From IMG/VR virus record IMGVR_UViG_3300031881_000087, positions 1 through 44,968 of that record: a DNA stretch of 44,968 nt. One strand, 5' to 3'. Below, piece after piece: positions 1 to 44,968 of the stretch. The DNA comes from a virus. Numbering within the stretch: the stretch's first letter is position 1; every line of letters begins with the position of its first letter. Under the pieces are notes generated by a model. That model saw only the letters and a list, made by a program, of their open reading frames with translations, had not been told where the DNA came from and ran no database searches. The position numbers and the translations under genes were made by a program.

Positions 1-88
1 TCAACTAGACCCTTCCACACATCGGCACCGCCAAGGGCTGCCTGCTGCTCGGCCATGTGCAGGTCATCGGTGAATGGCGTCTGCACCT
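1..88. repeat. Terminal repeat, left copy. Nt 1-55 equal 44827-44881 (direct); nt 1-88 are the reverse complement of 44881-44968 with one mismatch at nt 56.
   Basis: Base-by-base comparison of the window ends. A native 6-bp inverted repeat gtgcag/ctgcac lies at 57-62 and 81-86. Confidence 0.95.
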
Positions 89-3000
89 CGCCGTGCATCT
101 TGCCCACCACGTTGGCGAACTCTCGAACCGCGAGGTCGTGCGCGTAGATGCGGCGCATCTGGTCCTCGTCGTTGGCGTACTCGGCGAGCTTGATGCGCTG
201 CTCTGGAGTCTTGTTGTCGAGGAGCTGGAAAGACCGGATCGTTGCCGACACAGACTCCTCGGAGGAGAGTTGCAGGGACGCCTTCAGCGCCTCGCTGGCG
301 CGCTCCACAGCGAGCCTGACACGCTCGCCGACAGGCTTGTCCCCGTTGGCCGCGATGGCCTGGCGAACCTCTGCCATGGCCGTATAGAACTCGGGCGACT
401 TCTCGCGCGGGAACGCCGGATGCTCGATGCCTTCGGCGCGATCGAAGTTGCGGACCATCCGCGAGTCCGAGAGCGTCCGCTTGTCCTCGCCCAGGATTGC
501 TGCACCGATCGTCGTGCCAAGGTCGCGCATGGCTGCCGGAACGATGCCGCTCGCGGACAGTGCGCGCCCAGCCATGTCGGCTCCGGGGATCCCCGTCAGG
601 CGACGGGCCATGCCCATCGGCGCGGCGGCGGTCCCCGCATCCCAAGCCTCCTTGATCGCCCACAGGTAGGACGGGATCGAGGTCAAGTTGGCCCATGATC
701 TGGCGTCGTTGCTCGAGAGCGCATTGACCGTCTGCGAGATTGGGCCACCGGCCACTTGGCCGAAGAATCCTTTCCCGACCATCGCCGGCAGGCTGTAGGA
801 GACATCATTCAACCAACGCTTCCAGCCGGCCTCGCCCTTGAAGGCGTCCGAGATCATGTAGGCCATGAGCTGCGTACCGACGCCGGCCGCCGCCCATCCT
901 CCGGCCAGGGTCGCAATCCGCATCATGCCTCGAGCGCGCTGTGCGGCGCTGCGATCCGGTCCGACCGACCGCACAGCGCGGCCGATCTCGACAAGACGAC
1001 CGCTGATCCAGTTGCCGAACCGAATGGTGGCTTGGAGGTTTGGGCTGGCGATGAACTGGCTACCCTCGACCTTGGTGCGCCGGCCCGTAGTGAGTTTCAC
1101 GAACTCGTGGCGGAACTGATTCTGGAGAGCTTCGTCAGCCTTCCCAGACGTGAGTTGCGCGATCTGCTCGGGCTCGAATAGAAGCATGTCACGAAGCACG
1201 TCACGATCGTTGCCTGTGACACGACCTCGGCCCCAATCCGTCATCATCTCCAACGCCATCCGATCGAACACGGCGGTCTTGATGTGCTCGGTTTTGGTGC
1301 TGAACCAAGAGATCGCGTCGGCCACCGATTGCAACTTGCTGTCAGTCTCGCGGAAGTCGTGCGATCCCAGGTTACGGAACAGCGACCCGGCGCGTTCGGC
1401 GGCGAGCATCACCTCGCGCGGGCTCTTGGCCATGGCCGTCAGCGCGCGCCGCATGCGGGTGAACCCGGCGTAGGCCGTTCCCTGGATGATCGGGGCCGGA
1501 ATGTCGTGGACGCCTGTGAACATCGTCATCGACGACCGCATCAGGCCCTCGACCGGCGAGATCGCGCGGAAGAACGCCGACATCTTGTGCGGCGCACCGC
1601 CCTGGAGCGTGACAAGTAGATCGCTTGCCGTGTTGATCGCCTCCTCCGACGCGCCGGCCTGGGCCAGCTTGCGCTGGTAGGCTTCCATCTCGGCGGTCGC
1701 GCCCGCCGGAAGAGTGATTCCTTCTGCGTTCTCGATTGCCGCCTTGGCCTTCGCGGGCAGATCCTGGCCGAACTCACGGCCAGCAGCCAGTCGCCCGGAT
1801 TGCTCGTGAATCAGGCGCTTCATGGCCTCGAACGGGTTGGCCTGCAACAGGTGCATTCCCTCAAACACGTCGGGGAAGTTCTTCACCTCGCGGACAAACT
1901 CGAACGCCGCCGCGCGCTCCGAGGTGTCGGTCGTGGGGCCGACTTGCTTCTCGACCCAACGGGCGTCCATGTCGGCTTCGGTCATCTCGCGGAGCTTTGG
2001 CTTGCCATTCTCCATGAGCACCTTGCCGTCTGCTCCACGCTCCGGGATGCGAAGCCCGTTGTGGTCGATTAGCCAGCGCCACAGCCGGTTCCTGGTCGCC
2101 TCGTTGGAGAACACAGCCTCCCAATCGGCGCCCTGCATGCGCGGCACGATTGCCTTGTCACGGGAACCGAGCGGCTTGTAGACGAAATCGCCAAGGTTCT
2201 CATCCCACTGCGCGCGGCGGAACCCGGCGGCGTCGCCATGATTCCACAGGGTCAGCAGCGTCTTTTCGATGCCGTCCGCGACGGTGCGCTCGTAGTCATT
2301 TGCTGGCTCGATGCGGCGCTCGGCCAGAGCCTTCCATCGGTAGGTCGGAACGCTGTCGATCTCGACCACCGAGGAGGCGGTGCGGCCCATCTTCTTCAGC
2401 GCCTTCTCGGCTGGCGCGAAGTTGGTCTGACCCTCGCCGATCAAGGCGCGCTGGTCGGAGCGGGCCCGCTTGAACCGGACGGATGACCATTCATCATCAA
2501 CGATGCGGCGAAGCGTCTCCAGCCGATCCGTGACAGCCCAATCGACCACATTCCTGGCAACCCCGGCGGCCTTCTTGGCACCTGTCACGACTGCTTCGGT
2601 CGTGACACCGATGCCGGAGCCAGCCGTGGTCGTGTGCTTCTTCAGAGCGGCGTTGATCTGCTTCAGCTCGCCGCTGGCGGCAGCATCGCGGATCTCCTGG
2701 GCGGCCTCCTTGTTTCCGGCTGTGTCAGCCACCTCAGCCAGGTGCTCGAGCTGGGCCAGCTTGTCGTAGACGGACTTCTGAACCTTCGCCGCCTGCTTGC
2801 GGCTGGCGACCTTGGGAGGCTCAGGGGTTTCCTTGGCGGTCGTCGGTGGCTTCGCGGCCTCCTTGGGGGTTTCGCCGGTCACTCGTTCTGACAGGGATCG
2901 ACGCTTGCGCGGCTTCTTCTTCGGAGGCGTTGGAGCAGTCGGCTCGGCCTCTGGAAGGGCAGGTCCACCTTCCGAGGTCATCGCATCCTCAGCCAGCCTC

Positions 3001-5717
3001 ATGCGCGCTTCTTCTGCGCGGATCTCGCGGAGAGCGTGCTCTGCATTCGTGGTTCCCGAGGCGAGACTGCCGAGCTGCATCGCCAGGAACTCATCCTGTC
3101 CGTGGCCCCATAGAGGGGCGATATCTGATGCTTTGGCGTTCGTCATGAACAAGCGCAGTTCACGGGCTCCCGAAGAGTCCCCATGCTGCGCCATGACGAT
3201 GGCGTCGGCGATGATGCCGTCCACCAGGGGATCTGGGTAGACCGATCGTTTTGCGGCCAGCCCTCCAACGATGTGCCCAAGGGCGTCGGACGTGAAGTCT
3301 GGTTGTCCGATCCCTCCCTCAGCCACCAGCTCTTGCCGACCGATCTCGGTGCCGTAGATGTCGCTCGTGATGACCTTGCCATCGAGGCCAACCTGACTGT
3401 AGTAGGGGTCGTTCGGGTGAGCCCACACACCGGGAACCGTCTCCCGGAATCCAAGGCGCTCGAATGTCAGCTCGGCGCGGGTTGTCCGCAGCAGGCTCAG
3501 GAGGGTCATTGCATCGACTGCCTTGACCGCCTCTTCACCATGCAGGCGCTCGCCTGACACGGGCCTGCCTGCCTCAGCAAGCGCCTTGACATGCTCTGGC
3601 GAAAGCTGCAACGCCAGCTCCCCAGAGTCACGACTCATGTGCATGCTGTCTGACCCAGGATGGTTCCATGTCACGCCGCCGTCCATCTCGAGCTTGGGCT
3701 CCCAGCGCGACCGCAGCGGAGCGAACGACACTGGAACTGCCCACTCGAACTGAGCCACTACCTGGTTGATCGACTGCTCCACAGCATCCCCGCGCCCTCC
3801 TTCGCTCTCCATCCGTTGGCGATCGAGGAGATCCTGCATGGCATCAGGCCGCGGGCGCGTGAAGTCGTTCGTCTCCTGCGGAACGGGGACCGGGCCCTCG
3901 TTGTCGCGGGCTTCGATCTGGCGGCGCAGCTCCACATCCTGGCGCTGGCGGTCAGCCTCGACGATTGCATCCGCGTGCTTCTTGATTAGCTCGTTGCGGA
4001 TGCGCTTCCGCTCCACCATCTGATCAAGCAGGTCTTGGGCCTCCTGGCGGGCAGCTTCGATCTCTGCCGGCGTCTTGCCGTAGATCGGGTCGCCATTGGT
4101 CTTGGCGTCTAGCAGATGCTGCTCGAGCGCCGACTTGGTTCCCAGGCTCTTGAGCGCGGTGAGCTTCTTCTGCGTCGCCTCGATGACCGAGGCATCCTTG
4201 GCGCTCTCCAACTCGCCGGCCTGACGAGCTTCGTTGAGCTGCTTCTCGAGCACAGCGCGACGGCCAAGGTCCGTGACAGCGCGGTTGCCCTTGCGGCTCA
4301 GGGCATCAGCTCGCGCCTGGGCCTCCTCGCGCGTGACGCCTTCCGCCTCGGCGCGCAGCTTCAGCGTGTTCACGTCCGGCCGCAGCTTCTTGAACATCGG
4401 CGCCAGCTCGGCAGGCACCGAGTGCTTTAGGACGGCGATACCTGCAACACTTCCGGCCCAAGATGCGGCAAGGCGTGCGCCGGCTTCGGAGTCGCCATCG
4501 AGCCAGTCTCCAAAGTCGCTCCAGGTGTGCGGAGTCATCCAGGTGAAGGCCGTGCCCTCGAAAGCTGATGACACCGCATTGGCTGCGACCTTCCGTCCTC
4601 CGGCCCCGCCCACGGCCGCGATCATCTCGTCGGCCATCTTGGGGTCGATGACGCCATTCACCAGGTCGTCGTAGACCGACCCGATCGCCTTCGCCTGGGA
4701 CTTGCTCAGAGTCCCTGTCATGATCTTCTCCGCCAGCTTCTGCCCGGTGGCGGCCAGCGGAGCGACGATCGGCCCCGTCATGAGAGCCATCATCGCTGCG
4801 TTGTTCCGTTCATCCTCCTTCGACATCACGTAGCTCTGGGCCACGATGCTGGCGGTCGTGGACATCGTGTCGCTCAGGTAGCGGCCACCCATGGACATGA
4901 TCTTTTGAGTGCGCGAAGCCTGCGCAGCCCACTCGGGGAGCTTTGCCAGGGCTGACAGGGGCGTCCCTGAGCGCATCGCGGCACCGACAATCCTGGGGTC
5001 GATGCCTTCGATGGCGCCTCGCGCCAGGCGCTTTGCGAGGGCCTTCTCCACTGGCTGGATGAAAGGCCGAACCGCGGCTGATCCGCCACGGCCAATCAGA
5101 GCCCCTGGACCGGTGGCAAAGCTGGCGATCACGCCGGCAGCTTCACCAAAGGCCGCCGAGCTTCCCAGGCGGGCCTTCAGGAGCTGATCGACGTTGCCGC
5201 TAACTGTCTGACCGCCCAGCTCCTCCCGAGAGAAGAACGGGCCGTATACGAGGTCTAGGACGCCAGGGTCTTCGGTGCCGAACGCAGAGGTGAAGGCATC
5301 TTTGAGGTCTGCCTGCGTCCGTGTCCACCGCTCTGAGATCGTGCCCGGCTCAAGCACGTTCATCGACCCGGCCAAGGCGGCACTCTTGAGCGCAAAGGTG
5401 CCGAGATGCGCCACCGAATCGCCGAGCGCTACGCCAAACTGGTCGAACTGGTAGCGAGCGTTCTGCCAGAAGCCGCGAGCCTCCGCGCCCTTCTCGATCG
5501 CAGCGTCACCGAACGCGCTCTGCATCGACTCAAACAAGGCTTGCGCCGGGTCGTGCTCAACGTAGGCGCGCACATCCTCAAGCATGGACTCGCGGGTCGG
5601 AGGACCGATCGGCTTCACAGCAGGCTTCACAGCCATCGGCTCCTGCGGCTGCTGGCCCACCGACTTCATCGGGTCTTGCTGGATCTGGCTTTCGGTGTCT
5701 TGCGTCAGCGGGTCCAT
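1..5717 (-). CDS. Giant internal virion / ejection-type protein (T7 gp16 position), first 1905 codons. The ORF leaves the window at nt 1 and resumes at 44826.
   Basis: ATG at 5717-5715, 1 nt after the stop of the upstream gene. The ORF track shows no minus-strand stop in this frame anywhere in 1-5717. My hand translation reads as a sensible protein. It is the last gene of the internal-protein block, before the fiber. Confidence 0.7.
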   Translation of the reverse strand, partial: MDPLTQDTESQIQQDPMKSVGQQPQEPMAVKPAVKPIGPPTRESMLEDVRAYVEHDPAQALFESMQSAFGDAAIEKGAEARGFWQNARYQFDQFGVALGDSVAHLGTFALKSAALAGSMNVLEPGTISERWTRTQADLKDAFTSAFGTEDPGVLDLVYGPFFSREELGGQTVSGNVDQLLKARLGSSAAFGEAAGVIASFATGPGALIGRGGSAAVRPFIQPVEKALAKRLARGAIEGIDPRIVGAAMRSGTPLSALAKLPEWAAQASRTQKIMSMGGRYLSDTMSTTASIVAQSYVMSKEDERNNAAMMALMTGPIVAPLAATGQKLAEKIMTGTLSKSQAKAIGSVYDDLVNGVIDPKMADEMIAAVGGAGGRKVAANAVSSAFEGTAFTWMTPHTWSDFGDWLDGDSEAGARLAASWAGSVAGIAVLKHSVPAELAPMFKKLRPDVNTLKLRAEAEGVTREEAQARADALSRKGNRAVTDLGRRAVLEKQLNEARQAGELESAKDASVIEATQKKLTALKSLGTKSALEQHLLDAKTNGDPIYGKTPAEIEAARQEAQDLLDQMVERKRIRNELIKKHADAIVEADRQRQDVELRRQIEARDNEGPVPVPQETNDFTRPRPDAMQDLLDRQRMESEGGRGDAVEQSINQVVAQFEWAVPVSFAPLRSRWEPKLEMDGGVTWNHPGSDSMHMSRDSGELALQLSPEHVKALAEAGRPVSGERLHGEEAVKAVDAMTLLSLLRTTRAELTFERLGFRETVPGVWAHPNDPYYSQVGLDGKVITSDIYGTEIGRQELVAEGGIGQPDFTSDALGHIVGGLAAKRSVYPDPLVDGIIADAIVMAQHGDSSGARELRLFMTNAKASDIAPLWGHGQDEFLAMQLGSLASGTTNAEHALREIRAEEARMRLAEDAMTSEGGPALPEAEPTAPTPPKKKPRKRRSLSERVTGETPKEAAKPPTTAKETPEPPKVASRKQAAKVQKSVYDKLAQLEHLAEVADTAGNKEAAQEIRDAAASGELKQINAALKKHTTTAGSGIGVTTEAVVTGAKKAAGVARNVVDWAVTDRLETLRRIVDDEWSSVRFKRARSDQRALIGEGQTNFAPAEKALKKMGRTASSVVEIDSVPTYRWKALAERRIEPANDYERTVADGIEKTLLTLWNHGDAAGFRRAQWDENLGDFVYKPLGSRDKAIVPRMQGADWEAVFSNEATRNRLWRWLIDHNGLRIPERGADGKVLMENGKPKLREMTEADMDARWVEKQVGPTTDTSERAAAFEFVREVKNFPDVFEGMHLLQANPFEAMKRLIHEQSGRLAAGREFGQDLPAKAKAAIENAEGITLPAGATAEMEAYQRKLAQAGASEEAINTASDLLVTLQGGAPHKMSAFFRAISPVEGLMRSSMTMFTGVHDIPAPIIQGTAYAGFTRMRRALTAMAKSPREVMLAAERAGSLFRNLGSHDFRETDSKLQSVADAISWFSTKTEHIKTAVFDRMALEMMTDWGRGRVTGNDRDVLRDMLLFEPEQIAQLTSGKADEALQNQFRHEFVKLTTGRRTKVEGSQFIASPNLQATIRFGNWISGRLVEIGRAVRSVGPDRSAAQRARGMMRIATLAGGWAAAGVGTQLMAYMISDAFKGEAGWKRWLNDVSYSLPAMVGKGFFGQVAGGPISQTVNALSSNDARSWANLTSIPSYLWAIKEAWDAGTAAAPMGMARRLTGIPGADMAGRALSASGIVPAAMRDLGTTIGAAILGEDKRTLSDSRMVRNFDRAEGIEHPAFPREKSPEFYTAMAEVRQAIAANGDKPVGERVRLAVERASEALKASLQLSSEESVSATIRSFQLLDNKTPEQRIKLAEYANDEDQMRRIYAHDLAVREFANVVGKMHGEVQTPFTDDLHMAEQQAALGGADVWKGLV

Positions 5718-11968: not shown

Positions 11969-13695
11969 CAGTTCTGCCAGGGATAAAATGGGTTTCCGAA
12001 CTGACCAAGGAATCCGTTGTTGCCCATGCGGCGCCGGCCTCCATTCAGACGCTGACGACGCTGGCGGTCCACCTTGTTGGCATGGATCGAAACTAGTCCG
12101 AGCAGGCGTGCCTCCTCGACGCGCAGCTTGCTTTCCAACGTCGCGTTGCCAGCAGACACCGTGACTCGGCGAGCAGCAGCAATCTTCACCGCCTCGATGT
12201 ACTCGGCTGGAATCAGCGGCTTCTCGTCGTCAGCCATCATCTTGTTCGGCACGTACATGTGGTGCAGGTCCACAAGCTCTTGCACGTAGTTCAGCGTGAT
12301 GATCTGCACTCGCCCGCCATCAGCGTGCCCAACCATGCTCCAGTCGTAGGTCGTCCATGGCGCGGTCGCTGGACGGATCTCGAGGAGGCGTGTCACAACG
12401 CGCGGCAACGCAACTGGTGTCAGGGGATTGGAGACGAGCGTGATGCGGTTGATCTGCCGCAGCCACCAGCAGGTATCGGCGACATAGTTGATCAGGTCCA
12501 GGTATGCCTCGTTGATCGCCTCTGTGATCACCTCATCGCTCTGCCCTGTGTCTGCGGTGTTCCGTTCCGTGACACGGCGAACCTGCGCGCGAAGCTCGGC
12601 GAGCGTAGGAACGTTGTCCATCGGCAGCGAAATGGACGTGCGAGCGCGGATCGCCAAGAGCGCTGCGAAGTCAGCATTGGCCAGGCTGATGATTCCCAGC
12701 GTTCCGTAGTGGGGATCGTTGGTCGTCAGCTTCTGGAACGAGTTCGTGTCATAGGTTGCGAAGTAGGGGTCGTCAGCCTGCCGACTATCCAGAACGGCAT
12801 TGATCACCGCGGCGTTGGATGATCCCCATGGGTGGTCGGTGATCTTGGCCCACACAAACGGGGTCTGCGCTTCCGATGCAATGGCGATCCCGAGCGAGTA
12901 GATCAGCGATCGAACCCAGTCGATGAAGGCTGGACAGTTGGTGCCCCACATCTCGCGCATGTACGTCGAGATCGCATCCGTCTCTCCCTGCTTCATCGTG
13001 ACAAGGATGATCTTGAGCGTGTTCCCTTCTGCCTCGGTTGCGATCTTCGCCGCAGTGAGAACCTTGACGAGGCGCGCAGCCAGAGCGTCCTGGTCAGATG
13101 GTGACCAGTTCGTATGCAGGCGTCCGTCGAACCATCCCCATTTCCCGAACGAGGCATAGAGGGCGTTCGTTTCCTGCTGCTGTAGGGATGTCGATGCGAC
13201 GGCGCACTGGATCACGTTCACACGCTTCTTGAGCCATCCCTGCATCCTTCTGGCGAGATCGACAACGCTGTTGACAGTTCCTGGGTAGGAAGGGATCACT
13301 ACGCCGGCACCGTCGTCGTAGATCGGGCCGTGCGGGACGCAGAAGTGATTCGGATACTTGAACCCGACCGGGGCCTGGTTCGAGAGCCGCGGGACCGCAG
13401 TGTTGGTCCCCTCGAGTACTGTCCACGGAAGCCACATGCAGTACGACGAGTAGTCGTAGCTGGCGAATGGCGCTGGAGCTGGTCCAGCCGGAAGAGTTCC
13501 TGGAAGCGATGGCGGGTTGTAGAACGTCAGGAACCGAATCGTCTCGATCGCATACCCGTAGTACACCCCTAGCAGGGGATCCGGGGTCAGCGTAGAGAAG
13601 TTCATCTCAGGGATCAGCGCCAGATACTCACTGAGCGGCGCCGTCGGCTCGGCATTGCTCTGGCCGAGAGAGAGGATTGCGTATTCGATGCCCAT
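11968..13695 (-). CDS. Fusion protein: N-terminal SASA/SGNH-type carbohydrate O-acetylesterase-like domain plus C-terminal head-tail adaptor-like domain
   Basis: The N-terminus reads ILSLGQSNAEP (GQSN nucleophile block). A later MKQGETDA matches the QGE(S/T)D block, and NDPHY is a possible D..H block. The C-terminal ~200 aa sit in the gp11/adaptor position. Confidence 0.55.
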   Translation of the reverse strand: MGIEYAILSLGQSNAEPTAPLSEYLALIPEMNFSTLTPDPLLGVYYGYAIETIRFLTFYNPPSLPGTLPAGPAPAPFASYDYSSYCMWLPWTVLEGTNTAVPRLSNQAPVGFKYPNHFCVPHGPIYDDGAGVVIPSYPGTVNSVVDLARRMQGWLKKRVNVIQCAVASTSLQQQETNALYASFGKWGWFDGRLHTNWSPSDQDALAARLVKVLTAAKIATEAEGNTLKIILVTMKQGETDAISTYMREMWGTNCPAFIDWVRSLIYSLGIAIASEAQTPFVWAKITDHPWGSSNAAVINAVLDSRQADDPYFATYDTNSFQKLTTNDPHYGTLGIISLANADFAALLAIRARTSISLPMDNVPTLAELRAQVRRVTERNTADTGQSDEVITEAINEAYLDLINYVADTCWWLRQINRITLVSNPLTPVALPRVVTRLLEIRPATAPWTTYDWSMVGHADGGRVQIITLNYVQELVDLHHMYVPNKMMADDEKPLIPAEYIEAVKIAAARRVTVSAGNATLESKLRVEEARLLGLVSIHANKVDRQRRQRLNGGRRRMGNNGFLGQFGNPFYPWQN

Positions 13696-14120
13696 CAGGA
13701 AGTTCCCCAGTACAGGCCCTCACGCTGCATCAGCTCCTTGGCCTTTTGCAGGTAGTCCTGGCCGTATTGACGCTTCAACGAAAACAGCAATGCGGAGGGG
13801 ATCGCGCCGACCCGCTGCGGGTTGTCACGGCCCTTCAGGCTGATTTTGTTCTCGCGCTGGGCTCGGATGTCAGCCTGGCGCATTTGCTCGATCCTGGACC
13901 GAGTGTGGGCCTCCTGCTGGGCAACGTCTCGTCCCTGCGAATGGCCAACCATGTTGTAGTAGCCAAACTTCCCTGGATCGAGCGTGTGCCGTCGGTCGGC
14001 AACTACCACGTCAACGTGCTCGACAACCCCAATGGGATGGAGCTGGTGCCCGTGACACGTCGCGGCCGATGGGCCGCTGACAGCCTTGTGACACAGACAG
14101 CACCAGAATCGCTCGACCAT
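13695..14120 (-). CDS. Hypothetical protein with N-terminal Cys/His cluster
   Basis: 141-aa ORF between the capsid and adaptor genes. It carries CCLCH...CHGH near the N-terminus. Its start codon lies inside a hairpin and no SD is seen, so the start is uncertain. Confidence 0.45.
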   Translation of the reverse strand: MVERFWCCLCHKAVSGPSAATCHGHQLHPIGVVEHVDVVVADRRHTLDPGKFGYYNMVGHSQGRDVAQQEAHTRSRIEQMRQADIRAQRENKISLKGRDNPQRVGAIPSALLFSLKRQYGQDYLQKAKELMQREGLYWGTS

Positions 14121-24542: not shown

Positions 24543-24773
24543 CTACTCGCCCTCGGGCGAGTCACACGCGAGCGCCGCGTTGGCGCGCATGCGGACATCC
24601 TCGAGCGCGGTCAGCGCCAGCGAGTGGTTGCGGCCCTCGGGCATGATCTCGTTCAGCTCCCGCGCCAGCTCGAGGCAGAGAGCTGACACGCGGGCATGCT
24701 TGGCGTTCCGCGAGGGCGGGCCGGAGTGGTAGAGGAATCGGTTCTGGAGATCGGCGTCAGTTGGCTTCGGCAT
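24543..24773 (-). CDS. Small conserved-looking helical protein (76 aa), leftward
   Basis: The start was trimmed to MPKPTDADLQNRFLYH, which has AAGGA 7 nt upstream. The pattern F.YH.P...H..V.....LA.....P.GR..SLA.T.LE...M.AN resembles a widespread small phage/actinobacterial family whose name I cannot recall. Confidence 0.5.
   Translation of the reverse strand: MPKPTDADLQNRFLYHSGPPSRNAKHARVSALCLELARELNEIMPEGRNHSLALTALEDVRMRANAALACDSPEGE
24545..24562. terminator. Candidate bidirectional hairpin at convergent stops (stem actcgcc/ggcgagt, loop ctcg)
   Basis: Read directly. It sits just inside the 3' end of the minus-strand CDS (24543..24773), immediately after the plus-strand stop TGA at 24540-24542. 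It has no U-tract. Confidence 0.3.
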
Positions 24774-24948
24774 TTGGCAGTCCTTGGAGGGGATGAAAGC
24801 CACCACTGACCCGATCGCCCTGCCGCTGCAAGGCGGACATTCGACCGCAGTTACCGGCGCCGCCACGAGGGATCGTGACAGCCGGTGGCATGCCAGCTCA
24901 TCTTGGCCCTATACCCGGATGAGGCGGGGTTCCTTTCGCACGAAAGAA

Positions 24949-25024
24949 TGGAAGCGGGGGCTGGGATCGAACCAGCGGCCTCTGGATTATGAGTCCAGCG
25001 TTCTGCCAACTGAACTACCCCGCA
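24949..25024 (-). tRNA. tRNA with CAU anticodon (Met, or Ile2 if lysidine-modified), CCA encoded
   Basis: Hand-folded cloverleaf: D arm GUUC-AGUUGGCA-GAAC, anticodon arm CUGGA-CUCAUAA-UCCAG, T arm GCUGG-UUCGAUC-CCAGC, acceptor GCGGGG/CCCCGC. Position 1:72 comes out as U-U in my fold. Confidence 0.8.
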
Positions 25025-25051
25025 GTGCGTCGCTGGCTAGGCTACCGCGCC

Positions 25052-25468
25052 ATGACGATCGACGCCAGCGACCACACGCAGTTTCTGGCCATGCGCGTCT
25101 ACCAGGCCCACAAGAACTGGCAGCCCAACGGCAACCTCGGCCTCGAGGAGTGGGTCGCCCTGGCCGAGAGCAACGCCGAGCAGGAGTGGGCCCGCCACAT
25201 TCGCCGCGAGAAGCGCCGCCGGCGCCGCACCGAGCCTCTGGACCTCGTGCTCCCCGAGCCATCGACGCCGCCAGACCGCAGCGTCGAACTCCTCGAACAA
25301 GTCGCCAGCCTGCTACAGCGCCTGACCGAAAAGGAGCTGGAGGTGTTCCTCGCCGTGTGCCTCGACCGACAGCCCCTAACAGCCGCCGCGGCGCAGCTCG
25401 GCATCACACGGGAGGCCGTAAAGCAGCGCCTTCACGACGGTCGGCAGCGGCTTCCACCGTGCCAATGA
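25052..25468 (+). CDS. Small ECF-sigma-like protein (region-4 HTH with a short degenerate region-2-like N-terminus)
   Basis: LTEKELEVFLAVCLDRQPLTAAAAQLGITREAVKQRLHDGRQRL is a typical sigma-70 region 4.2 HTH. W.ALAESNAEQEWARHIRREKRR resembles the end of region 2. The start was trimmed to the Met at 25052 so that it no longer overlaps the tRNA. Confidence 0.6.
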   Translation: MTIDASDHTQFLAMRVYQAHKNWQPNGNLGLEEWVALAESNAEQEWARHIRREKRRRRRTEPLDLVLPEPSTPPDRSVELLEQVASLLQRLTEKELEVFLAVCLDRQPLTAAAAQLGITREAVKQRLHDGRQRLPPCQ

Positions 25469-25972
25469 GTCACGCCACGTAACCCGCTGGGAAAATCTTC
25501 TGCAAGCGACCTATCCTTTTTTCGAGATGGAGTCACTTGTACAGGGTAGAGGCACGCGAAGGTCATCCCCAGTACCTCGACCGGGCCACCCGCCGCCCCT
25601 CCCCGGTACCAAAACCGGGCTCGCCAGACAGCCGGGGCCCCCTCCTTGGAGTCCCACGCCTCCCGCTCGAGAGCGACCCCCCGCCGGGGTGGCCAGAGTT
25701 CCCATAGTCCGCGCCCGAGTTGCCACAGTAGCGGTGGCCTGACAGAAATCCGGCCGGATCCGGGCGGATGTCCGGGCGGCCGGCACGCCACCTGCTGGGG
25801 AAGCCGGGGGCCAGCGGGGGTTCCTGGGGCGGAAGCGTGAGAGAGGGGCTGGCCACCACAGGCCGGGCCGGTATCCGAGGCGGACGGGCGAGAGAGAGAG
25901 TTGAGGACTCCATGTTCTGGAGTCCCTGCGCGGCCGCGGGGTCGGACCCCCCCAGGGGGTGGGGTGGGCCAG

Positions 25973-26646
25973 CCTGTCAGCGCCTGTCACGGCGCCCCCT
26001 CGCAAGCCCCCCGACCTGTCCCGTCGCCAAGGATCGCGCGCCCCGCGCGGGGAGAACGGCCATTCCCAGCCGGCCGCCTGTCAGCCGACTGTCACGGCCG
26101 GGTCGAGTAGTCCGCCAGGAAGGGGGCAACCGCCCGAATGACCATGCCCCGCCAGGGCTCCCTGCAAGCCGCCAGTGACACGATCGGTCCGCCTAGCCTC
26201 CTCCCTGCCTCCCTGGCGTGATGGGCCAGCCACGGGGCACCGAAGAGGGCACAATGGGCTTGGAATGAGCGGATGTATGACAGGCTCGAACCCTCCGTTC
26301 CGCCCTGATTCGGCAACATGGCAGGCGAACCGGCGCGCGTCCCCCGGCGTGACAGGGCAACGGCCAATGCCCGCCAAGCCCAAACAGGCAATCGAAGGTC
26401 CGGGACATCGCGCATCATGGCCCGTGACAGGCCGGCGTATGACAGGCCGGAGGAACGGGGCACACCGGGGCGGCCCTTGCCCTTGGCGTTCCGTGACAGG
26501 GCGACCGCGGGGGCGAACCCGGCGCCCTTCAGCCCACCCGCGGCGATCAAGGCGACCACGGCGCGGCCGCGCAGGGTCGGCCATCGGCGCGATCCGCGGC
26601 GCTCGTTCGGGGCGAGTAGACGCAAGGGATCGGTGGTGATGACAGG
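25973..26646. repeat. Orientation-switching array of a 7-10-nt motif (consensus about CGTGACAGGC)
   Basis: CCTGTCA lies at 25973, 25983 and 26077, with variants at 26015 and 26088. The complement TGACAGG lies at 26278, 26350, 26425, 26440, 26494 and 26640, with a variant at 26176. Close pairs are spaced 10, 11 and 15 nt. Confidence 0.8.
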
Positions 26647-26868
26647 CGGGGGGGCGCCGAGACGGCGAGGATACTTTCGGGGCAAGGGGCGCGCCGGCCG
26701 GCCGTCGGCGAAGAAAGGACTGTCGGGCAAGCGCTTGGCTAGCATGGCGTTAGGGGCGGTCGTGGAAATTGTGTCACGTGGGTATTGCATTGTGGACGAT
26801 ACACAGTAGCGTTCCTGGTGGGGGGCGAGCATCTTCGCCCGGCCCCCCGAACCACAGCAGAGCACAGC

Positions 26869-28005
26869 ATGACAGAACAAACCACCATGGCAGAGCGGTT
26901 GGCGACGGCCAGCATGCAGCGCGTTCTATACCCGATGGCCCGGCGGCTCGGGATCCCCGGATACGTTGAAAAGCGCAAGGGTGACCTTGTGGCGGCGCTA
27001 CTGGCGCATCCCGACTGTCAGGAAGCGTACGATGCCGAAACCGGGGCAAGCGCTCATCCGGCGCCTGTCACGGAATCGCCCGGTGACGACGAGGTAGCGC
27101 GGGCGCTTCGCACGATCCTTGCCGCGCGCGCGCCGCGGTCGGCGCCGGTCGATGAAACGGCCGTTCGCTTGATCGCCGAGGAAGTCGTCCGCGCGGCGAT
27201 GGAAGGCGCGGCCGTTTCTGTCACGGTCAATGACGCCAGGACGGAAAGGTCCGTTTCCGTAGGCGCGCAACACGCCAGGTTCCCCCTTCTGTTGAAGGTA
27301 TGCGATACCTTTGTCGATGGAAAGCGCATGGTGCCTTGGCTTGGCGGTCCGCCAGGAACGGGCAAGACAACGGCCGCGCGGTCCGTGGCGAAAGCGCTCG
27401 ACCTGTCTTTCGCCTTCACTGGCGCCCTAGACTCACCTTACGCCCTGTCAGGCTTCATCGACGCGGGGGGGCGAACGGTCCGAACCGCATTCCGGGAAGC
27501 CTGGGAGAACGGGGGCGTATTCCTTTTCGACGAAATAGACGCTTCGCATGCATCGGCCGTTGTCGCCTTCAATGCGGCGCTGGCGAACGGCGTATGCGCG
27601 TTCCCGGACGGCATGGTCGAACGGCACCCTGACAACGTTTGTATCGCTGCCGCGAACACGTTCGGGCAAGGGGGCAATGCGAACCTCGCGGGGCGTGTGC
27701 GGCAAGACGGCGCCTTCCTTGATCGGTTCGCAATGATCCATTGGAACATCGACCCCGCCCTAGAATCGGCAATCTGCCCGGACAAGCGCTGGCTACGCAC
27801 AGTCCGCGCTACTCGCAAGGCCGCGACCGATCGTTCTGTGACAGGCGCGACAATCACTCCGCGCGCATCCGTCAAGGGGGCGGCGCTACTGGCAAACGGG
27901 GTCGCCTTTGATGATGTATGCGAGATGGCGCTACGTTGTGGGCTCCCTGACGCGTCCTGGGAACCGCTTCTGTCGGTCGCGCGTTCGGCATGGGGGGAGT
28001 CCTAA
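26869..28005 (+). CDS. AAA+ ATPase, MoxR/CobS (AAA_5)-like, with an N-terminal Rho_N/SAP-like motif
   Basis: Walker A GGPPGTGKTT, Walker B VFLFDEID, AANTFG, AFLDRF. The N-terminal LYPMARRLGIPGYVEKRKGDLVAALLAH resembles the Rho N-terminal helix-hairpin motif. The start was trimmed to MTEQTT. Confidence 0.75.
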   Translation: MTEQTTMAERLATASMQRVLYPMARRLGIPGYVEKRKGDLVAALLAHPDCQEAYDAETGASAHPAPVTESPGDDEVARALRTILAARAPRSAPVDETAVRLIAEEVVRAAMEGAAVSVTVNDARTERSVSVGAQHARFPLLLKVCDTFVDGKRMVPWLGGPPGTGKTTAARSVAKALDLSFAFTGALDSPYALSGFIDAGGRTVRTAFREAWENGGVFLFDEIDASHASAVVAFNAALANGVCAFPDGMVERHPDNVCIAAANTFGQGGNANLAGRVRQDGAFLDRFAMIHWNIDPALESAICPDKRWLRTVRATRKAATDRSVTGATITPRASVKGAALLANGVAFDDVCEMALRCGLPDASWEPLLSVARSAWGES

Positions 28006-31525: not shown

Positions 31526-31797
31526 AAGCCAACCCCATGAAGTGGAAACCGGCCCTCGACACCGAAGACAGCCAGCCGTGCGCTGTGTGGTCTAAAGCGG
31601 TGGAGTGGCTAGATGATCTGATGGTGGACGCCATCGGCGGGTTCATACCAGCGAGATGGCAGGATGAGACGCCTGCCGGGGGCTGCGATCACATCTACCT
31701 CTACCGCATGGGTCGCGCGTCGTTCCGCGTCCACTGGCACACCTGCTGTCAGGATCACCCGGTGTGGATCACGAAGCTTGAGGTGGTGAAGTCGTGA
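31522..31797 (+). CDS. Hypothetical protein (91 aa)
   Basis: ATGA coupling at both ends. Confidence 0.5.
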   Translation: MKANPMKWKPALDTEDSQPCAVWSKAVEWLDDLMVDAIGGFIPARWQDETPAGGCDHIYLYRMGRASFRVHWHTCCQDHPVWITKLEVVKS

Positions 31798-32186
31798 CGC
31801 AGACCAACGGAGTCCATTGCTGGCGATGCTGCTGCTGGCGATACTGCCTGCGCCCCGCCGCCAAGGCGGGGGAGTGCTCCTGCGAATGCCATCTTGCGAA
31901 GCAAGAGGACGAACGCTACTCTGTAGGCATGCCACAACAAGCAAGCCCAGGGGCGAAAGCCGGCGGCCGACCATCTAACACCGCCTTCGGCCGCGCCCTG
32001 CGCCGCAAGGGCATCACCAGCGAACAGCTCGCCAAGATCACCGGCTACAGCGAGACAGCCGTGCGATCCTGGCGGGCTGGCGTCAGGATTCCGCAGCGCG
32101 GGGCGCTGATCCTGATCGCCGCCGCGCTCGGCATCAAGCCCAGCGCGGTGCTGCGGCTGATCAAGACCGCGATCAAAGCAAAGTAA
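31794..32186 (+). CDS. XRE-type HTH protein with a Cys-rich N-terminal extension
   Basis: FGRALRRKGITSEQLAKITGYSETAVRSWRAGVRIPQRGALILIAAALGI is a classic HTH_3/XRE pattern. It has a GTG start overlapping the upstream stop. An internal Met at 31929 could give an HTH-only product. Confidence 0.6.
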   Translation: MTQTNGVHCWRCCCWRYCLRPAAKAGECSCECHLAKQEDERYSVGMPQQASPGAKAGGRPSNTAFGRALRRKGITSEQLAKITGYSETAVRSWRAGVRIPQRGALILIAAALGIKPSAVLRLIKTAIKAK

Positions 32187-35179: not shown

Positions 35180-35774
35180 ATGCTGCAAAGCGAGTCGAAC
35201 ACTACAAGGCGCAAGGGTGGAAGGCAAGCCCGCGATCCTTCGTTCCCGATCTACCCCCGGCGATTTACTGGTCGATCCGCGCATCGCCTGCCTATCGGCC
35301 ACCGAGCTGGGCGTCCACTTCAAGATGCTCCTGTTCGCGTGGATGAACCCGCTGCCCGCTGACCTGGCCCTGGTGCAGCAGATGGCCGGCGGCGAGATGA
35401 CTCCGCGTGTCCGCACGCTCTGGAGGATCGTCGATGGCTACCTACAGAACGACTACCTCGAAGGCGTGAGAGCTGACAGGGAGGCATTCCGAGCCGAGCA
35501 GAAACGCAAGTCGGACCGTGCCCACGGGAAGCCCGCGGGCAGTCCACGGGCACCATCCGGGCAACCAACGGGCGTCCCGCGGGCTGCCCTTCCGTTTCCC
35601 TCTCCTTCTCCGTCTCCGTTTCCATTGATGGATGCAAGCATGCAAGAGGTTTCTGTACCAGGAAAGAACCACGGCGGTAGCCCTGCCAGTACCCAGGAGG
35701 CCATCGCTCAGATCCTCGTAAACGCCAAGCCTAGCCACGATCAGGCAGGGGGGGCTACCGATGGTAACCCTTGA
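35180..35774 (+). CDS. DUF1376-like (replication/recombination-associated) protein, reading frame broken at a C5 run (35254-35258)
   Basis: The ATG at 35180 has a good SD and encodes MLQSE...RDPSFPIYP in one frame. GDLLVDPRIACLSATELGVHFKMLLFAWMNPLPAD continues in the +1 frame. Joined, the two match the DUF1376 signature fPfY.gD.l.d...LS.ee.G.Y..LL...W. Confidence 0.6.
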
Positions 35775-36566: not shown

Positions 36567-36814
36567 ACAACGACGAACTATCCGAAGTGGTCAACCGCCA
36601 CCTGACCATGCTGCGCGAGCATTTCGATGCAGTCCACATCGTTGCAACGCGCGAGGTGGAAGGCGACCAAGAATCGCGTGTCACGTTCTCGATGGGCAAG
36701 GGCTCGATCTACGAGCGCCTTGGGGCGATGCGCGACTACGTGCTAAAGCAGGACGAGAGGACACGCATTCAGGCTGGCCGTGAAGACCGCGACGAAGAAG
36801 AAGGAGCCCTATGA
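36563..36814 (+). CDS. Hypothetical acidic protein (83 aa)
   Basis: ATGA coupling at both ends. It lies directly upstream of the chaperonin, which is a co-chaperonin position, but I saw no GroES motifs. Confidence 0.5.
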   Translation: MNNDELSEVVNRHLTMLREHFDAVHIVATREVEGDQESRVTFSMGKGSIYERLGAMRDYVLKQDERTRIQAGREDRDEEEGAL

Positions 36815-37743
36815 CACCACGCAACATCACTCACAGCACGAAGGCCCGCGACGCCCTCGTCCGCGGCGCCAACACATTGGCCCGTGCAGTCGGCGCAACA
36901 CTCGGCCCGTCTGGCCGCATCGTCCTGATCGACGATCGGTTCGGCAGGGTCGTTGCCACCAAGGACGGCGTGACAGTGGCGAAGGCGGTCCACCTTCCCA
37001 GCCAAGAGGAGCAGATGGGGGCGAGCCTGCTGCGCGACGCCGCGATCAAGGTTGCCGAGACGTGCGGCGATGGCACGACGACGTGTGTTGTCATGGCGGC
37101 GAAGCTGCTGGAGGAGGCGACGAAGCTGGTGCTCGGCGGCGCCGACCTGGTGAAGCTCGTCCGCGAGATCGAGGACGCCGCCGGCTGCGCCGAGAACCTG
37201 ATCATGTCCCGCAGCCAGCCGGCGATCGGCGTGGGCTGGGACCAGAAGATCGCCAACGTGTCTGGCAACCATGACCCGCGTGTCACGCAGTCGGTTGCGC
37301 TGGCCTTCGACCACGTTGGCGCGAACGGCTCCATCTCGATCCGTGACGGCAACACCGACCGCATCGAGGTAGACCGGCAGGAGGGGTTCCGCATCGAGCG
37401 TGGCCACTTCGCCGCCGGCCTGACACCGGAGTCCGGGCTCATCGAGTTGGAAGATGCTCTCGTCCTGATCACCAACCGCACGCTGACAAGTGGCGTTGAG
37501 CTGATCCCGATCCTCCAGTCCTCCGCTGCCGCAAACCTGTCGCTGCTGATCGTCTGCGATGGCCTGGTGGGTGAAGCACTCGAGACTGTGACAGGGAATC
37601 ACCGGGCTGGATCTATCCGCGTCGCCGCCGTGCGCGCGCCGGGCTTCGAGGACCGCCAGTGGGACATGCTCCACGACCTTGCCGTGTGGTGTGACGCCGA
37701 AGTGCAGGACATCGCACAGGCAGGCTCGATGCGGCCAAACTAG
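36811..37743 (+). CDS. groEL: GroEL-like chaperonin (Cpn60), N-terminal about 300 residues
   Basis: ARDALVRGANTLARAVGATLGPSGR, TKDGVTVAK, GDGTTTCVVMA and VRAPGFEDRQWDMLHDLA align residue-for-residue with the GroEL equatorial, intermediate and apical regions. The frame ends at TAG 37741-37743. Confidence 0.8.
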   Translation: MTPRNITHSTKARDALVRGANTLARAVGATLGPSGRIVLIDDRFGRVVATKDGVTVAKAVHLPSQEEQMGASLLRDAAIKVAETCGDGTTTCVVMAAKLLEEATKLVLGGADLVKLVREIEDAAGCAENLIMSRSQPAIGVGWDQKIANVSGNHDPRVTQSVALAFDHVGANGSISIRDGNTDRIEVDRQEGFRIERGHFAAGLTPESGLIELEDALVLITNRTLTSGVELIPILQSSAAANLSLLIVCDGLVGEALETVTGNHRAGSIRVAAVRAPGFEDRQWDMLHDLAVWCDAEVQDIAQAGSMRPN

Positions 37744-38354
37744 GCGCCGTCGCCAACGTGACGCAGGACCGCAGCCGAACCATCCTGCGCAACCCGATCG
37801 GCCAGAACGTCCCGGCGCTCACGTCACGCATCAAGAACCTGGAGTCAGTTCGTGACACAACCTCGAACGAGTACGACCTCGACAAGGCAATCGAGCGCAT
37901 CGGCCGGCTGCGCGGTCGCGTCGTCGAGATCCGTGTCGGTGCAGCAACCGAGACAGAGGCGCGCGAGATCAAGGACCGCATCGAGGACGCGCTGCATGCC
38001 GTTCGCATCGCGCACCGTGACGGCGTGCAGCCGGGCGGCGGGACGGCGCTGCTGCGCGCGGCACACTGGCTTGAGATGAAGCAGACCCTCGGAGCGCAGG
38101 CTGTCAGGACCGCGCTGCGCGAGCCTGCCGCCAAGATCGCCAGGAACGCCGGGACTCCTGAGCATCTGGCTCCGATGACTGTTGCCATCGACCTGAGCTG
38201 GAACACCGGCTGCACGGCTGACGGCGAACCCGTGGACATGATGCAGTTTCCAGATCCGACAGCCGTGGTGGTTGGCGCACTTCGCGCCGCCGTCTCGGTT
38301 GTCACGACGTTGCTGCTCGCGGAGACGAGCATCACAATCGAGGAGAGCCGATGA
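37695..38354 (+). CDS. groEL: GroEL-like chaperonin, C-terminal about 205 residues in the -1 frame
   Basis: This frame is open from 37695. KLGAVANVTQDRSRTIL, EYDLDKAIERIGRLRGRVVEIRVGAATETE, DALHAVRIA..GVQPGGG and DPTAVV align with GroEL residues from about 320 to 525. The first start codon in this frame (GTG 37758) has no SD. Confidence 0.75.
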   Translation, partial: RRSAGHRTGRLDAAKLGAVANVTQDRSRTILRNPIGQNVPALTSRIKNLESVRDTTSNEYDLDKAIERIGRLRGRVVEIRVGAATETEAREIKDRIEDALHAVRIAHRDGVQPGGGTALLRAAHWLEMKQTLGAQAVRTALREPAAKIARNAGTPEHLAPMTVAIDLSWNTGCTADGEPVDMMQFPDPTAVVVGALRAAVSVVTTLLLAETSITIEESR

Positions 38355-44826: not shown

Positions 44827-44968
44827 TCAACTAGACCCTTCCACACATCGGCACCGCCAAGGGCTGCCTGCTGCTCGGCCAGGTGCAGACGCCATTCACC
44901 GATGACCTGCACGTGGCCGAGCAGCAGGCAGCCCTTGGCGGTGCCGATGTGTGGAAGGGTCTAGTTGA
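44827..44968. repeat. 142-nt terminal fold-back: a direct copy of nt 1-55 followed by the reverse complement of nt 1-88
   Basis: 44827-44880 and 44915-44968 form 54-bp inverted arms. The arms are extended by aggtgcag/ctgcacgt (one mismatch) around an 18-nt loop. Confidence 0.95.

Follow-up and report, generated by a model that had tools for sequence, protein, structure and literature searches.

A dense two-block array of a genome-wide DNA word beside the AAA+ operon of a virus genome: a possible landing pad for a DNA-binding protein

We analysed a 44,968-nucleotide (nt) stretch of viral DNA, positions 1 to 44,968 of IMG/VR virus record IMGVR_UViG_3300031881_000087 (the window), in which an array of the short repeat CCTGTCA and its complement TGACAGG occupies positions 25973 to 26646, between the gene for a sigma-like protein and that for an AAA+ ATPase. 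A preliminary description had proposed that the array is a replication origin, an iteron set or a landing pad for a regulator. Because two-thirds of the array lies inside a gene and the word behind it is the most over-represented one genome wide, we read it as a landing pad rather than an origin; the latter is unlikely. Tentatively, we favor the view that the array is a dense set of sites for a putative sequence-specific DNA-binding protein at the control region of an early operon, with the copies dispersed through the genome being secondary. The suggestion of a landing pad is still plausible, as the densest patch of the word is syntenic in three diverged lineages and its copies are conserved beyond background.

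Exact CCTGTCA was found at 25973, 25983 and 26077 and exact TGACAGG at 26278, 26350, 26425, 26440, 26494 and 26640, i.e., nine exact 7-mers within 674 nt (25973 to 26646). One-off variants lie at 26015 (CCTGTCC), 26088 (ACTGTCA) and 26176 (TGACACG). These positions and the close-pair spacings of 10, 11 and 15 nt agree with the preliminary description; the full set of spacings in the array is 10, 11, 15, 54, 72, 75 and 146 nt, and the conserved repeat unit measures 7 to 10 bp. The proposed division into two opposed blocks proved to be perfect, with CCTGTCA confined to the left block and TGACAGG to the right. The switch point is the stop codon (26092 to 26094) of a gene on the minus strand, and the stop itself falls within the copy at 26088 to 26094. 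Earlier hand counts of the 7-mer elsewhere also held (8 copies in positions 1 to 23600 and approximately 10 to 11 in the next 7.4 to 7.6 kb). When the 32 genomic copies were re-placed uniformly, nine copies in 674 nt were reached in 0 of 2,000 simulations, indicating that the 7-mer is clustered beyond chance. Since the positions were confirmed and no random placement matched this density, we consider the array and its orientation split to be real. The 7-mer turned out not to be specific to the array, however: its 32 copies in the genome compare with about 6 expected. The word takes the form CGTGACAGGC locally and usually CGTGACA(G/C) in the genome, with TGWCA as its minimal core.

The array had been described as lying in a noncoding gap. 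This is correct for the left block (25973 to 26097), where none of the frames looks coding and indel lengths are not divisible by 3, but the right block (26176 to 26646) is contained entirely in a conserved, fast-evolving gene on the minus strand (26092 to 26745; ATG at 26745), which encodes an Arg-rich protein of 217 amino acids and is referred to below as the ORFan gene. Relatives of the window, given L numbers here, were fetched through the AAA+ protein. A collinear open reading frame (ORF) with the same start and stop is present in L001 (53 to 56% amino acid identity) and in L006 and L007 (84 to 85%), and a partial one is present in L002. The synonymous fraction of changed codons in the ORFan frame was 0.60 for L006, 0.54 for L007 and 0.34 for L001, compared with approximately 0.1 to 0.2 in four other frames and an intermediate value in the plus-strand frame whose third codon positions coincide with those of the ORFan frame. 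The sole indel that separates the window from L006 and L007 within the ORF is 6 nt long, and the codon usage score is comparable to that of the adjoining AAA+ gene. The collinear ORF, the synonymous excess and the in-frame indel establish that positions 26092 to 26745 are protein coding. The case is a warning that a repeat array which appears to lie between genes can sit largely within an unannotated one.

The ORFan protein matched nothing in Pfam, PHROGs or NCBIfam, and a profile search of 1.84e9 representatives returned only its own family. A public protein collection holds three cluster representatives of this family, on 14 contigs that we read. The AlphaFold2 model was unusable, with a predicted local distance difference test (pLDDT) score of 36. 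Between the window and L002, the gene differs at 66 of 414 nt and the adjoining intergenic region at 7 of 123 nt, and the protein evolves approximately 5 times faster than its AAA+ neighbor (84% versus 97% amino acid identity to the L002 lineage).

Of the six right-block copies, five share one frame, in which xxC-CTG-TCA encodes (A/G/S)-Leu-Ser. Given in plus-strand coordinates and minus-strand peptides, the copy at 26278 to 26284 (TGACAGG) encodes S-L-S and occurs in this genome only; CGTGACAGG at 26350 to 26356 encodes A-L-S-R, and its GTGACAG is invariant in four genomes; the TGACAGG pair at 26425 to 26446, 15 nt apart, encodes G-L-S-Y-A-G-L-S-R, and its second copy is invariant in four genomes; and CGTGACAGG at 26494 to 26500 encodes A-L-S-R, which is replaced by V-T-R in L001. 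The last copy (TGACAGG, 26640 to 26646) is read in another frame (P-V-I), with ATGACA being invariant in four genomes. The variant TGACACG (26176 to 26182) was found in this genome only.

The preliminary description would have been overturned by a conserved gene in which the motif simply encodes a repeated peptide. Such a gene exists in form for six of the nine copies, but the codons tell against that cause. Ser-TCA accounts for 9.4% of the Ser codons in well-supported genes and for 7 of 15 in the ORFan gene. All five Leu-Ser pairs of the ORFan gene are written as CTGTCA, as are 8 of 39 in other genes, where single-codon frequencies predict about 1.5. Across four genomes, only 5.4% of the 5-mers in the gene are invariant, compared with four of its seven TGWCA cores (P = 2.6e-4). 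At copy 26494, L001 keeps the word as CGTGTCACG while Ala-Leu-Ser has become Ile-Val-Thr. A peptide repeat as the sole cause was therefore rejected, given the rare TCA throughout, the use of other frames elsewhere and the retention in L001 of the motif but not of the residues. This shows that the DNA word shapes the ORFan peptide and not the reverse. The word thus shapes the codons, and apparently also the amino acids, of a young gene; the local array alone would be an ordinary regulatory patch. We also noted that mRNA of the ORFan gene would carry CCUGUCA in its coding part and the complementary UGACAGG in its 3' flank, with perfect matches of 11 nt, which may be a coincidence given the genome-wide word.

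The left block consists of two direct doublets. The first, CCTGTCA-gcg-CCTGTCACGG (25973 to 25992, plus strand), is noncoding, with its copies 10 nt apart; both are retained in L006 and L001 and are lost or diverged in L007, beside an insertion in that genome. The insertion (L007, approximately 930 to 1720) adds about 290 nt to the noncoding gap relative to window position 26022 and includes a duplicated fragment of the ORFan C terminus (residues 166 to 185, 90% identity). The second doublet, CCTGTCAG-ccga-CTGTCACGG (26077 to 26097, plus strand), has its copies 11 nt apart, and the second copy holds the stop codon of the ORFan gene, read as TGA on the minus strand. Within this doublet, TGTCACGG is invariant across the window, L006, L007 and L001. 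The degenerate copy CCTGTCC (26015 to 26021, plus strand) lies between the doublets, and L001 has CCTGTCAC nearby. A GC hairpin, CGCGCG-ccc-CGCGCG (26035 to 26049), also lies between them, in the conserved block that begins GCCAAGGATCGCGCG, and is conserved in all four aligned genomes; it may act as a terminator of the ORFan gene.

The word extends well beyond the array. Against expectations from a second-order Markov model, the 7-mer with the greatest excess in the window is CGTGACA/TGTCACG (56 copies versus 5.7 expected; z = 21), and it still ranks first when positions 25900 to 26700 are left out (51 versus 5.6). Next in the list are GTGACA, GTGTCA, CTGTCA and the palindrome GTGWCAC. The same family of words also tops the lists for L001, L003, L004 and L005, whose AAA+ proteins are 46 to 73% identical to that of the window, and the word occurs in every relative examined; because all of these were fetched through the AAA+ protein, the co-occurrence of word and protein among them reflects ascertainment. 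Within genes, the copies fall into two of the sense frames (0 and 2) and each of the three antisense frames (23 copies sense, 27 antisense), and 22 of the CGTGACA copies are on the plus strand and 34 on the minus strand. Information beyond the core is limited to one flanking base. Of the STGWCAS copies beyond the array, L006 retains 38 of 48 unchanged (background, 46%) and L001 retains 13 of 23 (background, 28%). Word copies are under purifying selection at the DNA level. Neighboring cores are separated by gaps of 9 to 12 nt more often than expected, both in the window (9 versus 2.5) and in L006 (7 versus 1.6). These pairs include direct and inverted ones, and inverted 10-nt pairs are as common as direct pairs. 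It is this word, rather than the array, that is unusual: a 7-mer at approximately 10 times its expectation, selected inside genes in several frames.

Two familiar kinds of element were considered for the word and rejected. A Chi-like polar signal was excluded because there is no strand polarity outside the array. A promoter element (the -35 of an extracytoplasmic function [ECF] sigma factor or of sigma-70) was excluded because no -10 follows and there is no information outside the core. A search of the literature for the word itself found nothing relevant. In L004, we also observed an excess of GGAACT (18 versus 3.3) and of GCGTTAC/TAACGCA; these words may be the -35/-10 signature of an ECF-type phage sigma factor.

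The position of the densest patch is conserved. In the window, L001, L003 and L006, the densest 700-nt window of the word is located just upstream of the AAA+ operon, so that three diverged lineages have the patch at a syntenic spot. The array was also looked for in related phages, and its layout recurs in L006 and L007, with CCTGTCA to the left and TGACAGG to the right; in L001 the doublets are spaced 13 and 10 nt. L003 has no homologue of the ORFan gene. Its 1-kb gap showed no such homologue and no coding signal, yet contains six palindromes of the CGTGWCACG type. From this we conclude that the cluster is older than the gene that overlaps it in the lineage of the window. The ORFan gene and the AAA+ operon diverge from an intergenic region (26746 to 26868) that is more conserved than the ORFan gene itself and contains a motif copy, TTGTGTCACG (26769 to 26778), that is invariant in four genomes. 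A TTGTGWCACG copy upstream of the AAA+ start is present in the window, L001, L006, L007, L003 and L029, and L028 has TCGTGACACAG. By eye, the same region contains a weak candidate promoter, TTGCAT (26785 to 26790) followed after 16 nt by TAGCGT (26807 to 26812).

These observations are consistent with the notion that a putative DNA-binding protein reads TGWCA half-sites, which frequently occur in pairs separated by one helical turn. Because its sites are so dense there, the patch would be where this protein preferentially loads or regulates; the patch occupies the head of the rightward early operon and extends over the 3' flank and most of the lineage-specific gene on the opposite strand. Acting from this site, the protein might govern both divergent promoters, that of the ORFan gene and that of the AAA+ operon, and the dispersed copies would serve as secondary sites of lower density. 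Dispersed phage operators are already known, but they are longer, asymmetric and oriented.

Several results weigh against this reading. Six of the 56 copies are intergenic, as predicted by a noncoding fraction of about 8%; the copies have no preferred position within genes, and their orientation is not tied to that of transcription. This is unusual for a transcription factor. The local excess of the bare core is modest to marginal (11 TGWCA in 674 nt, reached in 55 of 2,000 simulations), and another gene (13695 to 14120) is as dense in TGWCA as the ORFan gene. In the cultured Sinorhizobium phage phiM5, 423 evenly spread copies of the core are too many for a classical regulon. A consensus promoter scan found no convincing promoter. 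No binding protein was found; the candidates are the ORFan protein, for which no fold or homologue was detected, an HTH_3 protein encoded at 31794 to 32186 and the ECF-type sigma factor.

Some of the same results would fit a patch that has no local function. In that somewhat unlikely account, the copies are a by-product of a genome-wide pressure and happen to accumulate in a young gene under weak constraint and in its 3' flank. The enrichment of the word everywhere, the marginal excess of the bare core and the equal TGWCA density of gene 13695 to 14120 would be expected, as would the rapid evolution of the ORFan gene and the restriction of two of the six right-block copies and the variant at 26176 to this genome. 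A by-product does not readily explain why the 7-mer cluster was never reproduced in simulation, why the patch is syntenic in three diverged lineages, one of them without the gene, why four of the seven cores in the ORFan gene are invariant or why the orientation split is retained in L006 and L007.

The best cultured match to the AAA+ protein is from phiM5 (L016, MF074189; 46% identity), which has only the AAA+ gene and its partner in common with the window. In phiM5, TGWCA occurs 423 times versus 62 expected (6.8-fold), at about 1 per 100 bp and in several frames, mostly as xxT-GAC/GTC-Axx, and CTGWCAG occurs 84 times versus 9.3; no mention of this excess was found in the literature searched. 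Host compositional bias was rejected as its source in phiM5, since TGWCA is at 0.8 times its expectation in a 50-kb sample of the host replicon pSymB and at 0.74 times in the Sinorhizobium meliloti phage PBC5. The minimal core is thus common to the window and an unrelated cultured phage, and its excess is absent from the sampled host DNA. A simple link between the AAA+ module and TGWCA was also rejected: the Gordonia phage Octobien14 (L018) bears the module and is enriched in CTWAG instead, and eight other AAA+-bearing loci from metagenome-assembled genomes (MAGs) have TGWCA at 0.3 to 1.6 times its expectation. Other phage-like sequences have words of their own; besides CTWAG and GCTWAGC in Octobien14 (184 versus 57), we noted TAGCTA in L026 (22 versus 0.9) and CTACAC in L022 (21 versus 3.4). 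Counting inward from the right terminal repeat of phiM5, the AAA+ gene comes first, and its module opens an end-proximal operon; in Octobien14, the AAA+/partner pair is close to the right end and stands behind four small ORFs.

It is a doubtful but far-reaching idea that TGWCA-type words are a selected genome-wide mark on the DNA of certain podophages, belonging to a new reading system for which the array would be the nucleation or loading site. PhiM5 shares only the AAA+ gene and its partner with the window, and this module may conceivably act on motif-marked DNA. If a reader protein exists, it may represent a new way for a phage to address its whole genome, for regulation, protection or compaction, and phiM5 is a culturable system in which to find it.

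We consider it unlikely that the word is instead the substrate of an enzymatic or structural process that acts genome wide, such as nicking, base modification, recombination or nuclease control, or packaging, with the patch marking, for example, a genome end. An even spread over the two strands, the occurrence of copies within genes and the absence of any preference for intergenic DNA would suit such a process, as would the very high density in phiM5 and the location of the AAA+ module near the genome terminus in phiM5 and Octobien14. The stretch from 25469 to 26091, which adjoins the ORFan gene, is the largest noncoding stretch found in the window and might hold a genome end. Moreover, nick-associated words of LUZ24-like podophages contain GTGAC (PMC3517423, PMC11780129), and the phiM5 record bears LUZ24-like notes. 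Known nick motifs are present in only 9 to 14 copies on one strand (PMC3517423, PMC11780129), however, compared with 22 on the plus strand and 34 on the minus strand here; the TACT part of the nick motif is absent, and information ends after one flanking base. The ORFs scanned included no methyltransferase gene or other modification gene, and the circular assembly hides any physical ends.

A replication origin, in which the copies are iterons for an unrecognised initiator, is quite improbable. That initiator might be the ORFan protein itself, by analogy with the lambda origin in gene O: the repeats are clustered, some are helically phased, their location is conserved and they lie inside a gene with no assigned function. 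The preliminary description had seen no classical replication initiator elsewhere in the genome, and indeed no initiator, helicase or polymerase was recognised among the window ORFs scanned. Its proposal of iterons beside an initiator did not hold up. We took iterons to be at least three direct repeats of approximately 17 to 22 bp in one orientation and with regular spacing, whereas the repeats here are short, irregularly spaced (10 to approximately 150 nt), dispersed and in two orientations. Positions 25001 to 27000 have a GC content of 0.687 to 0.689 (0.69 at the array), the highest in the window, with no AT-rich stretch that could serve as an unwinding element. The word is not confined to the locus, with more than 50 copies elsewhere, and L003 keeps the cluster without the gene. 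No cognate initiator is apparent, as the AAA+ protein is CobS/MoxR-like and the ORFan protein matches no family. Cumulative GC skew, which had been suggested as a check, was flat, with no switch or clear extremum at 26 kb, and was uninformative. A more typical iteron-like array occurs at 35520 to 35640, where an 11-nt period (CCRCGGGCA, 6.4 copies) and then a 6-nt repeat (TCCGTC, 5.5 copies) lead into an AT-richer stretch. This second array, which is intragenic (gene 35217 to 35774, downstream of RecT) and retained in L006 (468 to 571), is the more promising candidate for an iteron origin. At the place matching it, the relative L004 has a gene for a DnaC/IstB-like loader.

Least probable of all is that the direct doublets are PHO box-like sites for a host regulator of the PhoB/OmpR type that would link early transcription to phosphate status: the doublet at 26077 to 26094 (CTGTCAG-ccga-CTGTCAC) does match the two direct CTGTCAT units of the PHO box (PMC4415409, PMC3131613) at 12 of 14 positions in the exact 11-nt register, and similar doublets lie at 25973 and 41378, but the spacing is not constant (10, 11 or 15 nt in the array and 13 or 10 nt in L001), the CCGA spacer is GC rich and not A/T rich, no promoter or -10-like element follows the word as it would a -35, inverted pairs at 10 nt are found as often as direct pairs, and the majority of copies are solitary and intragenic.

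To the right of the array, the first gene of the rightward operon (26869 to 28005, plus strand) encodes a CobS/MoxR-like AAA+ ATPase, which matches phrog_249 (E value, 1.6e-39) and the Pfam families AAA and AAA_5 and is named CobS (JGI [Joint Genome Institute]: cobaltochelatase CobS) or MoxR-like ATPase by the sources. For the Rho_N motif noted earlier, the match of 20.8 bits was below the Pfam cutoff of 24.9. The nearest solved sequences are classical AAA proteins (p97/Cdc48). There was no significant match to DnaA, DnaC or Orc in Pfam, PHROGs or NCBIfam and none among the best 60 PDB sequences listed, and, judged by its sequence, the protein is not of the initiator type. On the left, the sigma-like gene (25052 to 25468, plus strand) encodes a compact ECF-type sigma factor with Sigma70_r4 and r4_2 domains (TIGR02937, 46.3 bits; cutoff, 42.9). 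At its 5' end, the longest sigma ORF runs into a tRNA-Met gene (24949 to 25024, minus strand; 66.7 bits); given this overlap and the start called in L001, the sigma start is more likely near 25052. A small gene further left (24543 to 24806, minus strand) matches phrog_1454, and its counterparts in L008, L010 and L001 carry the Pfam domain Acb2_Tad1_hairpin, which we take to be a family of anti-CBASS (cyclic oligonucleotide-based antiphage signaling system) and anti-Thoeris sponges.

The noncoding stretch between the sigma gene and the array has features of its own. The approximately 97 nt directly 3' of the sigma stop (25469 to 25565) have only four substitutions across four genomes and are better conserved than the surrounding genes (proteins 53 to 85% identical), with no Rfam match and no significant fold. 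For the gap, likewise, no significant fold was found, and Rfam matched nothing but a tRNA. A composite unit, TGGAGTCCC ... GACCCCCC-N3-5-GGGGTGG, is duplicated at 25646 to 25692 and 25917 to 25962, 270 nt apart, and is kept in relatives; the second unit is preceded by a hairpin, GGACTCCA-tgttc-TGGAGTCC. The two hairpins of this region are followed by a CU-rich tail on the minus strand (z = -2.2).

Elsewhere, the window is a circular assembly in which bases 1 to 54 are repeated directly at 44827 to 44880. The end of the window then folds back as the reverse complement of its start, with inverted arms of 97 nt (97% match), which either is an assembly artifact or is left over from a palindromic or hairpin junction. 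At the end of the virion arm, a giant ORF (1 to 5717, minus strand; at least 1,905 amino acids) has no Pfam or PHROG match; it was not listed by the ORF tool because it runs off the window start. The phage portal is of the SU10/N4-like type. A GroEL-like chaperonin is apparently split between 36811 to 37743 and 37758 to 38354, with matches to phrog_5725 that cover profile positions 3 to 302 and 343 to 534. A peptide pattern search of IMG/VR found no close relatives, and no DNA similarity to cultured phages was found. In the search for a host, a scan of genome collections with the ORFan protein was empty, and the AAA+ profile found only distant MAG loci.

Several known systems resemble the array or its word in part. 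The HIP1 element of cyanobacteria is a short palindrome that is many-fold over-represented genome wide, including in coding DNA, with an unknown reader, and is a host feature shared by phages. In this respect the word differs, since the sampled host replicon of phiM5 and phage PBC5 have no excess of it. The lambda origin lies inside gene O, and there, as here, repeats within an ORF impose a repeated peptide and some are helically phased; unlike the lambda origin and other intragenic iterons, the array has no AT-rich region, is irregularly spaced and of opposed orientation, consists of a dispersed word and has a counterpart without the gene in L003. The PHO box has a similar half-site, CTGTCA(T/C/G), and one doublet falls into its 11-nt register, but the variable spacing, GC-rich spacer, missing promoter context and genome-wide intragenic copies set the word apart. 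ECF41-type promoters (TGTCACA-N16-CGTC; PMC3426412) are alike in that TGTCAC(A/G) occurs here beside a phage gene for an ECF-type sigma factor. In the window, however, TGTCACA followed after 16 +/- 1 nt by CGTC was observed 5 times against 3.7 for random anchors and never in the array, and neither CGTC nor TANNNT was commoner after the word than at random anchors. The nick-associated words of LUZ24-like podophages (TACT/RTGMC and WACTRTGAC, 9 to 14 copies on one strand only; PMC3517423, PMC11780129) share with our word their shortness, their conservation across related podophages, their intragenic location and the GTGAC sequence, and differ from its 56 copies on both strands, which lack the TACT part.

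The nearest known analogue appears to be the stoperators of Cluster A mycobacteriophages, which are sites for L5 gp71-type repressors (PMC6550527, PMC9283540). Stoperators are 13 bp long, asymmetric and mostly in one orientation (PMC6550527), whereas the word here is a near palindrome of 7 to 9 bp without a preferred orientation in genes, and neither a repressor nor an integrase was recognised among the window ORFs scanned, although one HTH_3 protein is present. The dispersion itself is of the stoperator type, with many copies that are both intragenic and intergenic and are conserved in relatives. In both cases, a short word is distributed genome wide, in and between genes, is kept among relatives and is found at the early promoter region.

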